From Escherichia phage G4: a stretch of 5,534 nt of DNA. Positions 1,809 through 5,534 of this stretch are shown here, piece by piece. Where the stretch lies: the sequence record OR492646. One strand, 5' to 3'. How positions within the stretch are numbered: position 1 is the stretch's first letter; each line of letters opens with the position of its first letter. The notes beneath the pieces were generated by a model. That model was not told where the DNA came from. It worked only from the letters and a program-made list of their open reading frames with translations, and made no database searches. The position numbers and the translations under genes were made by a program.

Positions 1809-1974
1809 CGCCCTTGACGAGGAAAAATACCTAAACATGCTAGGTGCTCTCCTCAAAGACTGGTTCCGGTACGAAGAACATTTCGTACATGGTAAACAAT
1901 CAATGCTTGACATACTGAAAGAACGTGGCCTATTATCCACAACGTCAACTGACACAAACCGCAAAGGAAACTGA
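1720..1974 (+). CDS. C: Protein C (DNA maturation; switches replication to single-strand synthesis and packaging), 84 aa
   Basis: The ATG at 1720-1722 overlaps the A stop. The ORF track extends it to a GTG at 1702, which I judge an artefact. The translation [21 protein letters not shown]...[13 protein letters not shown]...[13 protein letters not shown]...[10 protein letters not shown] closely matches phiX174 C. Confidence 0.9.
1907..1936 (+). promoter_or_regulatory. Candidate sigma70 promoter for the late genes (pD-like): -35 TTGACA at 1907-1912, 18-nt spacer, -10 TATTAT at 1931-1936
   Basis: Seen in sequence: a perfect -35 hexamer and a 5/6 -10 hexamer. It lies near the 3' end of gene C, about 40 nt upstream of the D start, where the phiX174 D promoter is located. 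Confidence 0.5.
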
Positions 1975-1975
1975 A

Positions 1976-2434
1976 ATGTCTAAATCAAACGAATCTGCTG
2001 TAGCCTTTCAAACTGCTATTGCCTCTATCAAACTCATTCAAGCCTCTTCTGTTCTCGACTTGACAGAGGACGACTTTGACTTCTTAACTCGCGACCGTGT
2101 CTGGATTGCTACCGACCGCTCACGCGCTCGCCGTGCTATCGAGGCCTGCGTATATGGAACACTGGACTTTGTCGGGTATCCTCGCTTTCCTGCTCCTGTT
2201 GAGTTTATTGCTGCCGTCATTGCTTATTATGTTCATCCCGTTAACATCCAAACCGCCTGCCTCATCATGGAAGGTGCTGAGTTTACCGAAAACATCGTCA
2301 ATGGTGTTGAACGCCCAGTTAAAGCCTCTGAACTGTTCGCCTTCACTCTTCTCGTTCGCGCCGGCAACAAAGACCTTATCGGTCATGCCGAAACAAACAT
2401 CCGTGAACAATTACGTGCTCAAGGAGTTATGTAA
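1976..2434 (+). CDS. D: External scaffolding protein D, 152 aa
   Basis: ATG at 1976 with an AGGA SD about 9 nt upstream. The ORF track's upstream extension to 1925 lies inside C. From IASIKLIQAS onward the protein is nearly identical to phiX174 D (FPAPVEFIAAVIAYYVHPVNIQTACLIMEGAEFTEN...) at the same length. The TAA stop at 2432-2434 overlaps the J start (TAATG). Confidence 0.95.
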   Translation: MSKSNESAVAFQTAIASIKLIQASSVLDLTEDDFDFLTRDRVWIATDRSRARRAIEACVYGTLDFVGYPRFPAPVEFIAAVIAYYVHPVNIQTACLIMEGAEFTENIVNGVERPVKASELFAFTLLVRAGNKDLIGHAETNIREQLRAQGVM

Positions 2435-2465
2435 TGAAAAAATCAATTCGCCGCTCTGGTGGTAA
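2154..2465 (+). CDS. E: Lysis protein E (MraY inhibitor type), 103 aa, overprinted in the +1 frame of D and running into J
   Basis: ATG at 2154 with a GAGG about 10 nt upstream. The ORF track's GTG at 2097 is probably too early. The N-terminal transmembrane segment WTL...LAFLLLLSLLLPSLLIMFIP matches the conserved phiX174 E TM domain, including the Pro in LLLPSLL. The stop is TAA at 2463-2465. Confidence 0.85.
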   Translation: MEHWTLSGILAFLLLLSLLLPSLLIMFIPLTSKPPASSWKVLSLPKTSSMVLNAQLKPLNCSPSLFSFAPATKTLSVMPKQTSVNNYVLKELCNEKINSPLWW

Positions 2466-2511
2466 ATCTAAAGGTGCTCGCCTCTGGTATGTAGGCGGAA
2501 CACAATACTAA
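2434..2511 (+). CDS. J: Small basic DNA-binding/packaging protein J, 25 aa (MKKSIRRSGGKSKGARLWYVGGTQY)
   Basis: ATG at 2434-2436 overlaps the D stop, with an AAGGAG SD at 2420-2425. The highly basic peptide ends ARLWYVGG, matching the conserved J C-terminus. Its 25-aa length is G4-like (phiX174 J is 38 aa). Stop is TAA at 2509-2511. Confidence 0.9.
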   Translation: MKKSIRRSGGKSKGARLWYVGGTQY

Positions 2512-2519
2512 ACTCTTAT

Positions 2520-2537
2520 GTGGGACCGCGGTCCCAC
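2520..2537 (+). terminator. J-F intergenic perfect palindrome GTGGGACCGCGGTCCCAC (hairpin; weak intrinsic terminator or mRNA-stabilising element)
   Basis: Seen in sequence: an 18-nt perfect inverted repeat followed by the T-rich run TCTATTT. Microviruses carry a hairpin between J and F that acts as a leaky terminator and transcript stabiliser. Confidence 0.55.
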
Positions 2538-2556: not shown

Positions 2557-3840
2557 ATGTCTAACGTTCAAACTTCTGCGGACCGTGTACCTCATGACTT
2601 ATCTCACCTTGTCTTTGAGGCTGGTAAAATCGGTCGCCTCAAAACTATCTCTTGGACGCCTGTTGTTGCTGGTGACTCTTTCGAGTGTGATATGGTTGGC
2701 GCTATTCGCCTTTCCCCTCTTCGTCGCGGCCTCGCTGTTGACTCACGTGTTGATATCTTTTCTTTCTACATTCCACACCGTCATATCTACGGTCAGCAAT
2801 GGATTAATTTTATGAAGGATGGCGTTAATGCCTCTCCTCTTCTTCCTGTTACATGTTCCTCTGGTTGGGGCTCTGCTGCTTATCTTGGTACCATTCCGTC
2901 CTCTAACCTTAAGGTGCCTAAATTCTTACATCAGGGCTATCTGAATATTTATAACAACTACTTCAAACCGCCTTGGTCTGATGACTTAACTTACGCCAAC
3001 CCATCCAATATGCCTGCTGAGGATTATAAATGGGGCGTACGTGTCGCTAACCTGAAATCTATCTGGACCGCGCCACTTCCACCGGATACCCGTACATCTG
3101 AAAACATGACTACTGGTACATCCACTATTGACATTATGGGCCTCCAAGCCGCATATGCTAAATTACATACGGAACAGGAACGTGATTACTTCATGACCCG
3201 TTACCGTGACATTATGAAAGAGTTCGGCGGTTATACATCCTATGATGGTGATAATCGTCCTCTTCTGCTCATGCGCTCTGAGTTTTGGGCCTCTGGCTAT
3301 GACGTAGACGGTACCGACCAATCTTCTCTCGGTCAATTCTCTGGACGCGTCCAGCAAACCTTTAATCATAAAGTGCCACGCTTTTATGTTCCTGAACATG
3401 GCGTAATTATGACTCTGGCGGTTACTCGCTTCCCGCCGACTCATGAAATGGAAATGCACTATTTTGTAGGCAAAGAAAACTTAACCTATACCGATATTGC
3501 TTGTGACCCTGCACTGATGGCTAACCTGCCACCGCGTGAAGTGTCCTTAAAAGAATTCTTCCACTCCTCACCTGATTCTGCTAAATTCAAAATCGCTGAG
3601 GGCCAATGGTATCGCACACAGCCTGACCGTGTCGCTTTCCCATATAATGCTCTGGATGGATTCCCGTTCTACTCTGCTCTCCCGTCCACGGAACTAAAAG
3701 ACCGTGTACTGGTTAACACTGATAACTACGATGAAATCTTCCAGTCTATGCAGCTTGCACACTGGAATATGCAAACTAAATTTAATATTAACGTTTATCG
3801 TCACATGCCTACGACTCGTGACTCAATCATGACCTCGTAA
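2557..3840 (+). CDS. F: Major capsid protein F, 427 aa
   Basis: ATG at 2557 with an AAGGA SD 9 nt upstream. The ORF track's start at 2518 lies inside the palindrome. The translation MSNVQTSADRVPHDLSHL...RLSPLRRGLA...QGYLNIYNNYF...IDIMGLQAAYA...GQFSGRVQQT...KFKIAEGQWYR...PTTRDSIMTS is strongly similar over its full length to phiX174 F at the same 427-aa length. Confidence 0.97.
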   Translation: MSNVQTSADRVPHDLSHLVFEAGKIGRLKTISWTPVVAGDSFECDMVGAIRLSPLRRGLAVDSRVDIFSFYIPHRHIYGQQWINFMKDGVNASPLLPVTCSSGWGSAAYLGTIPSSNLKVPKFLHQGYLNIYNNYFKPPWSDDLTYANPSNMPAEDYKWGVRVANLKSIWTAPLPPDTRTSENMTTGTSTIDIMGLQAAYAKLHTEQERDYFMTRYRDIMKEFGGYTSYDGDNRPLLLMRSEFWASGYDVDGTDQSSLGQFSGRVQQTFNHKVPRFYVPEHGVIMTLAVTRFPPTHEMEMHYFVGKENLTYTDIACDPALMANLPPREVSLKEFFHSSPDSAKFKIAEGQWYRTQPDRVAFPYNALDGFPFYSALPSTELKDRVLVNTDNYDEIFQSMQLAHWNMQTKFNINVYRHMPTTRDSIMTS

Positions 3841-3849
3841 CGCAACAAA

Positions 3850-3955
3850 GGCCGCCCCTCTACTGGTCAGATACCTGCCCAATGTGGGGCGGACCGTGCC
3901 TACGGAGATACTTGAGTCTCCGATACATGGACGGCGAAAGCCGCCGTCCCTACTG
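3850..3955 (+). other. F-G intergenic structured region: candidate G4-type complementary (-) strand origin with three stem-loops and a CTG primase start site
   Basis: Seen in sequence: hairpin 3852-3858/3886-3892 (CCGCCCC/GGGGCGG); hairpin 3903-3908/3917-3922 (CGGAGA/TCTCCG, 8-nt loop); hairpin 3929-3936/3942-3949 (GGACGGCG/CGCCGTCC, 5-nt loop); then CTG at 3953-3955. The reverse complement of 3929-3954 reads AGTAGGGACGGCGGCTTTCGCCGTCC, which matches my recollection of the 5' end of the G4 primer RNA made by DnaG primase. Confidence 0.6.
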
Positions 3956-3976
3956 CAAAGCCAAAAGGACTAACAT

Positions 3977-4510
3977 ATGTTCCAGAAATTCATTTCTAAG
4001 CACAATGCTCCAATTAACTCTACTCAGCTTGCTGCCACTAAAACTCCGGCTGTCACGGCACCTGTTTTATCTGTGCCTGACTTAAGCCGCTCTACTATTA
4101 AAATCAATGCAACAACCACAGCCGTTACAACTCATTCAGGCTTGTGCCATGTTGTTCGCATTGATGAAACAAGCCCAACAAATCATCACGCTCTATCTAT
4201 TGCAGGTTCGTTATCAAACGTTCCTGCTGATATGATTGCTTTTGCCATTCGTTTTGAGGTCGCTGATGGCGTCGTTCCTACTGCCGTCCCGGCCTTATAC
4301 GACGTCTATCCAATCGAAACCTTCAATAACGGCAAAGCAATCTCATTTAAAGATGCTGTTACTATCGATTCACATCCCCGCACCGTCGGTAACGACGTTT
4401 ATGCGGGAATCATGCTCTGGTCTAACGCTTGGATCGCCTCTACTATCTCTGGCGTCCTCTCTGTTAATCAGGTAAACCGTGAAGCAACTGTTCTTCAACC
4501 TCTGAAATAA
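3977..4510 (+). CDS. G: Major spike protein G, 177 aa
   Basis: ATG at 3977 with an AAGGA SD 7 nt upstream. The translation starts [10 protein letters not shown] and ends [14 protein letters not shown], with an internal YDVYP...[26 protein letters not shown], matching phiX174 G (MFQTFISRHN...YDVYP...[26 protein letters not shown]...LQPLK). Confidence 0.95.
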
Positions 4511-4520
4511 GGATTATCCT

Positions 4521-5534
4521 ATGTTTGACGCTATTGCTGGCGGTATCGCCTCCGCACTTGCTGGAGGCCTTACAGGTAAATTATTTGGCGGCGGTCAGTC
4601 CGCCAACTCTACTGGAATTCAAGGCAACGTCCTTGCTTCCGATAACAATGTTGTAGGTGCTAATGATGCCGGTATTAAATCTGCTATTCAGGGCTCTACT
4701 GTTCCTAACTCTCAGGAAGCTGCCCCCTCCGCTATCTCTGGCATCCTTGCCGACTCTGGCAAGCATGCGCTCTCGTCTCTTACCGATGCTGGTGCAAATA
4801 AACTCATGGAGGCTGTCGGCCTTTCTAAGTCTGCCTCTGACAAGGGCAAGGACACAAAAGACTACCTCGCCGCCGCATTCCCCGATCTCAACCCATGGGA
4901 ACGTGCCGGCGCTGGCGCTTCTGGTGCAGGCATGCAAGACGCTGGCTTCCAAAATCAGAAAGAGCTAACCAAAATGCAGCTTGACAACCAAAAGGAAATC
5001 GTTAAGATGCAAAACGAAACCCAGAAGGAAATCGCTGGGCTTCAATCTGTTACATCACGCGAAAATACCAAGGATACTGTATATGCTCAAAATGAAATGC
5101 TCGCGTATAACCAAAAAGAGTCTATGTCACGCGTTGGCGCTATTCTCGAAAACACAAGCCTCACCAAACAACAACAAACTTCTGAAATTATGCGGCAAAT
5201 GCTTACTCAAGCTCAAACCGCAGGTCAATATTTTACGAATGAGCAAATCCAAGCGCTTACAAGAAAAGTTGGTGCTGATATTGATGCTGTTCGCGCTAAC
5301 ACTGCACGCACCCATGTAGAAATCGACCGCTCAAAACAGGAGGTTCAAAACTCCCGTTACGCTTCATCACAGGTAGGCAAAACCGCTAAGGACGTGTCCA
5401 ATGCAATTACTGATACAGCTGGTTCTATTGTTGATTATTTTCGTGGTGTTGATCAAAAAGTGGCAGACGTTTACAACAACTATTTCAAAGATGGTAAATC
5501 GAAAGGAATAGAATCCAATCACCGCTCCAAATAA
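4521..5534 (+). CDS. H: DNA pilot / minor spike protein H, 337 aa
   Basis: ATG at 4521 with an AAGGA SD 7 nt upstream. It has a Gly-rich N-terminus ([16 protein letters not shown]...KLFGGGQ) and a conserved central region (KDYLAAAFP...[27 protein letters not shown]...[14 protein letters not shown]...[20 protein letters not shown]) closely matching phiX174 H. The TAA stop is the last codon of the window. Confidence 0.95.

Follow-up and report, generated by a model that had tools for sequence, protein, structure and literature searches.

In phage phiX174, the lysis protein E acts by an established route in which its helix, placed in the inner membrane, blocks MraY, cell-wall synthesis halts and the cell lyses at septation; the inhibition of MraY classically occurs with SlyD as a stabilising chaperone. 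The 91-aa protein is encoded in the +1 frame of gene D, at 568-843 within D at 390-848, with its TGA located 5 nt before the end of D, and the D/J junction that follows reads TAATG. A 103-aa orthologue, ID52-E (YP_512455.1), is in use as a bacterial-ghost tool. When produced from a plasmid, it lyses E. coli Nissle and Salmonella, its lytic activity is lost upon MraY overexpression, which implicates MraY as the target, and the C93S substitution has little effect (PMC9311611; PMC11126076); P21A abolishes lysis (PMC11126076). ID52-E lyses more strongly than phiX174-E, which has been speculatively credited to its C-terminus (PMC9311611), and it was reported to lyse slyD and dnaJ knockouts (PMC9311611; PMC11126076). 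The SlyD requirement in the G4/ID52 clade is uncertain.

The DNA analysed here (the window, 5534 nt in full) is the complete genome of a G4-like Gequatrovirus, a bullavirus, and its list of open reading frames (ORFs) shows the canonical arrangement A/A*, B, K, C, D(E), J, F, G, H. Its E, unlike that of phiX174, is not confined to D and passes across the D stop into J. Both the length of this E and its overlap with J are already known, being annotated in the window's own record and in at least 10 relatives, and the layout has been present in the GenBank annotation of sister phages since about 2006 (Rokyta-era deposits); a literature search for an explicit published remark on the E/J overlap found none. 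What we add is an explanation of the overlap by a single switch base, the tail length to be expected from it, the lack of detectable constraint on this tail, and the likely derived character of the G4 layout.

Gene E and its neighbours

The features of the locus, in window coordinates, are as follows.

1907..1936, plus strand: PD-like sigma-70 promoter upstream of D, E and J (TTGACA, 18 nt, TATTAT; 11/12 consensus matches), predicted from its position
1976..2434, plus strand: gene D, external scaffolding protein and host frame for E (ATG 1976, TAA 2432-2434, 152 aa; relatives annotate the same coordinates)
2141..2144, plus strand: GAGG, putative Shine-Dalgarno-like motif 9 nt upstream of the E start codon, read from the sequence
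2154..2465, plus strand: gene E, lysis protein (ATG 2154, TAA 2463-2465; 103 aa plus stop; frame D+1)
2181..2240, plus strand: E residues 10-29, the conserved transmembrane core LAFLLLLSLLLPSLLIMFIP with Pro21; the alignment shows no difference from phiX174 E here
2421..2426, plus strand: AAGGAG, Shine-Dalgarno element of J, located within the 3' ends of D and E, read from the sequence
2434..2511, plus strand: gene J, DNA-binding core protein (ATG 2434; 25 aa)
2434..2465, plus strand: E/J dual-coding stretch of 32 nt (E residues 94-103 and the E stop; J codons 1-10 and two bases of codon 11)
2520..2537, plus strand: hairpin GTGGGACCGCGGTCCCAC followed by a T-rich run, resembling a terminator after J, from a sequence scan

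The promoter, whose position presumably corresponds to the known D promoter of microviruses, and the terminator-like hairpin flank D, E and J on either side. E begins 178 nt downstream of the D start (1976/2154), the same offset as in phiX174 (390/568). D and J have no spacer between them and share TAATG as stop and start, while E terminates 31 nt 3' of the end of the D stop. Three frames share base 2434, as part of the D stop TAA, the J ATG and the E codon AAT. An earlier note on this DNA had described E as overprinted on D in the +1 frame and extending 31 nt beyond the D stop, such that 2434-2465 encodes both the C-terminus of E and the N-terminus of J. The overprint is borne out by the sequence and the ORF list, and the overlap with J by the frames themselves; the phiX174 coordinates given above agree with its statement that E ends there before the D stop.

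All three genes match their protein families. E matches Pfam PF04517 (Microvirus lysis protein E) over residues 35-74 with E = 8.9e-21 and 74 bits, the curated cut-off being 25 bits; D matches PF02925 (E = 4.3e-83) and J matches PF04726 (E = 1.9e-16). In the PDB, E matches the E chains of 8g01 and 8g02, the chain deposited as 'GPE' in 8g01 comprising only 82 residues. The exact protein is deposited in NCBI as gpE (WMU34127.1, 103 aa), as are the exact F and H proteins; a search for contigs encoding the exact E protein found no record. The reading frame of E is a gene far beyond chance. The identity of this gene follows from the PF04517 match, the transmembrane core identical to that of phiX174, the matches to 8g01 and 8g02 and the exact protein deposited as gpE. 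Taken jointly with the account of its 3' end given below, it is very probable that 2154-2465 is a genuine E, the lysis gene of this G4-like bullavirus.

E combines the PF04517 match with the +1 overprint on D and an N-terminal helix with Pro21, the helix being assigned by sequence likeness; the conserved transmembrane domain announced by the earlier note is found here, in residues 10-29. The E stop located 31 nt beyond the D stop departs from the phiX174-type layout, in which E is wholly nested in D. Such nesting marks the phiX174 layout and is not a defining feature of the E family. By analogy, the product would be a single-pass membrane protein whose N-terminal helix (Pro21) and juxtamembrane segment block MraY and cause lysis, and homology makes MraY its probable target in this phage as well. 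That the window's E is lytic is likewise to be expected from the 81%-identical, 103-aa ID52-E, for which lysis has been shown.

The minus strand carries, across from D and E (2120-2410), a 96-codon ORF that starts with TTG. We presume that it is there by chance and do not take it for a gene, since microviruses are, to our knowledge, transcribed from one strand only.

The wobble base at the end of gene D

The 3' end of E is described by two further features.

2428, plus strand: switch base, third (wobble) base of the D codon Val151 (GTT) and second base of E codon 92 (TTA), where a G would create TGA and an A would create TAA, shortening E to 91 aa
2427..2465, plus strand: E read-through tail, codons 92-103 (LCNEKINSPLWW), and its TAA stop, from the sequence, the genome survey and the alignment

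In the alignment, the window's E corresponds to a phiX174-length E of 91 aa followed by the 12 residues LCNEKINSPLWW, and it is 57-59% identical to phiX174 E. The unusual 3' end of the gene would be the result of the loss of a stop codon and not of the gain of a new domain. The T at 2428 turns E codon 92 into TTA, which would allow E ribosomes to cross the D stop and the J start. Since D and J directly adjoin in TAATG, the extended frame passes into J, in the order TGT AAT GAA AAA ATC AAT TCG CCG CTC TGG TGG, then TAA. Translation of E would end at this first in-frame stop, which is made from the J codons Gly10 (GGT) and Lys11 (AAA). In phiX174, E is fully nested because the penultimate codon of D is GTG.

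The D/E/J junction was surveyed in 20 fetched bullavirus genomes and the window. The penultimate D codon is GTG in phiX174 and ID18, where the E stop is TGA, and GTA in FL68 and PJNS002, where it is TAA. It is GTT in the window, ID12 and ID52, with TTA (Leu) as E codon 92; GTC in G4 and ID8 and ATC in the Lilledu group both give the E codon TCA. In every surveyed genome in which E reaches this site, G or A at the wobble position coincides with an E stop and T or C with read-through; the E of ID62 ends about 50 nt earlier and hence is uninformative on the switch base. On this pattern, a single D-synonymous wobble base (2428) decides between a nested 91-aa E and one that reads on.

The annotated coordinates of E and J in the relatives fall into four sets.

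ID12, NC6, WA6, NC10: E 2154-2465, J 2434-2511, the window coordinates
ID52 (RefSeq): E 2163-2474, J 2443-2520, layout as in the window
ID8, WA2, WA3: E 2154-2471 (105 aa), J 2440-2517
G4, ID11: E 2154-2444 (96 aa), J 2477-2554, with a 42-43-nt D-J spacer

The window has the junction of the ID12/ID52 type, with TAATG, T or C at the wobble position and an E stop made from J codons 10 and 11 (GGT AAA), and it shares its exact junction sequence with ID12, WA6 and NC10. The gpE of these three phages (e.g. AAZ49341.1, Gequatrovirus G4 species) has the same coordinates, the same tail and 97% protein identity, differing from the window's E by a few substitutions such as A36V, K57R and V88A. The gpE of ID52, also found in NC6 and vB_1081, likewise has 103 aa, overlaps J by the same 32 nt and stops at the same place, but it is 81% identical over the whole alignment and its tail ends in RR instead of WW. 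The 96-aa E of G4 and ID11, from the same clade, has the same start and has likewise lost the phiX174-type stop; unlike the window's E, it passes the D stop by only 10 nt, meets an earlier TGA in the D-J spacer, ends in ...CKDL and does not overlap J.

The E-frame ORFs of Lilledu, Lilleto, SECphi17 and Lilleen, which are distantly related and in which E is unannotated, have lost the stop at the same D wobble position (ATC) and read into J as in the window. Their overlap with J is only 8 nt, however, with tails SCNG or SCKYYG, because the J sequence there (ATG GCT AAA) stops E. Since these phages share the stop loss, the spill-over of E into J is recurrent, or at least widespread. The records of Lilledu, Lilleto, PJNS002, Lilleen and vB_1081 annotate about six genes and omit intact ORFs for E (91-103 aa) and J.

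These comparisons bear on two suggestions of the earlier note. The length of E is indeed lineage-specific in that it characterises an entire clade, with at least 13 phages sequenced, but it is not peculiar to this genome. The C-terminus that the note called divergent is not a diverged domain but a 91-aa E with a 12-residue read-through from stop loss. A stop placed earlier in the E frame of relatives, which the note had put forward as a possible sign of error, occurs in none of the close relatives (92-99% identical), and the distant phages with an earlier E stop (phiX174, FL68, PJNS002, ID18) are distinguished by the very base that creates it.

Which junction came first

The compact TAATG junction is present in phiX174, FL68, PJNS002, the Lilledu group, ID52, NC6, ID12 and WA6. 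In a neighbour-joining tree of gene D, which covers 456 nt in a group known for recombination, the window itself being mosaic, the spacer-bearing G4 and ID11 are nested as a subclade, flanked on either side by 103-aa forms, and the window groups with ID12. The spacer of ID11 is bounded by a 17-nt direct repeat, AAGGTGTTATGTAAAGA / AAGGAGTTATGTAATGA, with 88% identity and a spacing of 43, and the right copy carries the Shine-Dalgarno element and the start of J; the AAGGAG motif is part of the right-hand copy upstream of J in both G4 and ID11. The spacer of G4 and ID11 has a 29-nt core (AGACCTCTGATCTTATCGTCTTCACTTTT; 2435-2463 in both), for which a search of the window with up to 3 mismatches found nothing, and the window thus has no internal donor for the spacer. 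Based on these data, the 103-aa, J-overlapping E appears to be ancestral for the G4/ID52 clade, and the 96-aa E of G4 would be derived from it by a 43-nt insertion that duplicated the junction; we infer this direction of the indel from the sequences compared.

Genome-wide, the nearest sequenced relatives of the window are the Gequatrovirus G4 members ID11 (96.2%) and ID12 (95.3%), and the affinity changes along the genome. The C-D-E-J segment (1800-2500) is closest to ID12 and ID8 (98-99%), whereas 3550-4900, from the end of F through G to the start of H, is 96-99% identical to G4/ID11 versus 90-96% to ID12/ID8. Judged by these affinities, the genome is mosaic, which fits the recombination known in the group.

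In a rival account, the compact junction of the window would be secondary, a 5577-nt G4/ID11-like ancestor having lost 43 nt between copies of AAGGNGTTATGTAA and thereby fused E to the J-overlapping frame. Several observations agree with such a deletion: ID11 is the closest genome overall, 5577 minus 43 is exactly the length of the window, ID11 has the direct repeat that would be needed, and a crossover within the first 4 nt of this repeat would yield the same sequence. The junction region itself, however, is nearest to ID12 and ID8 and not to ID11 or G4. The end of D reads GGAGTT, as in ID12, NC6 and ID52, whereas the left repeat copy of ID11 and G4 is GGTGTT or GGTGTC, and the D-gene tree places the window with ID12. 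An ID12-type D-E-J module, inherited or acquired by recombination, fits the data with no new deletion. We regard a secondary origin as unlikely, and in view of the local match to ID12 we rejected an independent new deletion as the favoured origin.

The affinity switches near the J stop (2511-2540), where the coding SNPs of J match ID12 and NC6; the J-F hairpin GTGGGACCGCGGTCCCAC is of the G4/ID11/ID8 type, ID12, NC6 and ID52 having the shorter GGGGCTACGGCCCC. At positions 1-450, which span the intergenic region between H and A and the beginning of gene A, identity to any sequenced relative is only 88-92%, compared with 95-99% for most of the genome, which suggests that this segment comes from an unsampled lineage. 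The frame of gene A is open from an ATG at 32, and relatives annotate its start at 59.

In ID8 (2435-2440), WA2, WA3 and Lilleen (about 548-553), the D stop and the J start are separated by the same 6-nt insertion, ATATTA (giving TAAATATTATG). E gains KYY from it in both lineages, Lilleen being only distantly related to the other three, and the insertion is either recurrent or horizontally transferred.

The read-through tail of E

The tail length expected from stop loss was calculated with the J protein fixed and synonymous codons drawn from the phage's own F, G and H usage. Of all outcomes, a read-through of 12 codons is the likeliest (36%); 14 codons come next (31%), then 39 codons (25%). 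The 12-codon extension is not beyond chance.

The J protein is identical across 13 genomes of the G4/ID52 clade (12 fetched relatives and the window; an IMG/VR copy was checked), and all 10 variable J sites among these genomes are J-synonymous. In genomes whose E overlaps J, two of them lie in the overlap, at 2457 and 2460; both are T to C, J-synonymous, and turn the terminal WW of E into RR, which accounts for the RR end of the ID52 tail. In genomes without an E/J overlap, the equivalent positions drift too, including a T-to-C in G4 that would destroy the TAA. Variable third positions number 2/10 in the overlap versus 6/15 in the rest of J, a difference that is not significant, as would also be seen if statistical power were low. 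The same pattern is seen where E overlaps D: 34/36 variable sites are D-synonymous, 33 of these 34 change E, and the density of variable sites is about twofold higher in E codons 36-93 than in the transmembrane third. Natural E proteins in the survey and alignment have 76, 91, 95, 96, 97, 103 and 105 aa. The compact junction pattern GCNCARGGNGTNATGTAATGAARAARTC has 1 match in IMG/VR, a 5538-nt ID52-like contig, and 0 in JGI metagenome contigs, so these scans provide no larger natural sample in which to test constraint on the tail.

We propose that the 12 added residues would be a near-neutral passenger whose sequence is set by J and by the synonymous drift of J. With two substituted sites in a small sample to infer it from, it is most likely that the tail is carried along by J rather than maintained as a selected module.

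Alternatively, the J-overlapping tail could be adaptive, its hydrophobic WW or basic RR end stabilising E, tuning the timing of lysis or lowering SlyD dependence, and be kept by selection. The tail and its TAA are retained in 13/13 overlapping genomes examined, the window included, and the tail-bearing ID52-E outlyses phiX174-E and has been reported to lyse the slyD and dnaJ knockouts (PMC9311611; PMC11126076). The retention, however, is accounted for by J, whose protein is invariant in the clade, and the sole substitutions in the overlap are silent in J yet radical in E. G4 and ID11 have KDL in place of the tail, the ID62-type E has only 76 aa, and the length of the tail is that expected by chance. 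With about 40% of all positions differing between ID52-E and phiX174-E, the difference in potency is not assignable to the tail, and plasmid overexpression may by itself bypass SlyD dependence. An adaptive tail is in our view decidedly improbable, and we give slightly less credence still to the idea that the tail alters the biology of E, for example its stability or SlyD dependence, and so adds to the strength of ID52-type lysis. If the tail were functional, synonymous sites of J would be co-selected by a third gene.

In phiX174, D is made in vast excess over E. This matters for the proposal that translation of E across the ribosome-binding site and start of J is regulatory, damping or coupling late J synthesis, and that the overlap was selected for this purpose. 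Ribosomes on E would indeed cross the Shine-Dalgarno element of J (2421-2426) and its ATG at 2434 and terminate 31 nt inside J, in a geometry that is conserved in the clade. D ribosomes already cross the same element, however, and stop at TAATG; given the excess of D, the E traffic over the J start would be negligible, and J is made in G4, ID11 and phiX174 with no E/J overlap at all. Such a role is very improbable. An artefact, in which a sequencing or assembly error removed the E stop or the end was mis-called, has nothing in its favour beyond the departure from the phiX174 textbook layout and a negligible probability: 12 independently sequenced relatives, from different laboratories and years, agree on frame, switch base and stop, E has 103 aa in the source record's own annotation, and we reject sequencing error on this concordance.

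The result is explanatory rather than surprising and carries little weight as a discovery. It can serve in teaching to show how the C-termini of overprinted genes lengthen and shorten, and as a caution for annotators, as several recent bullavirus records are without E or J annotation. The reference phage G4 appears to represent a derived state and not the norm, and the de novo gene E evolves almost wholly at the silent sites of D and J.
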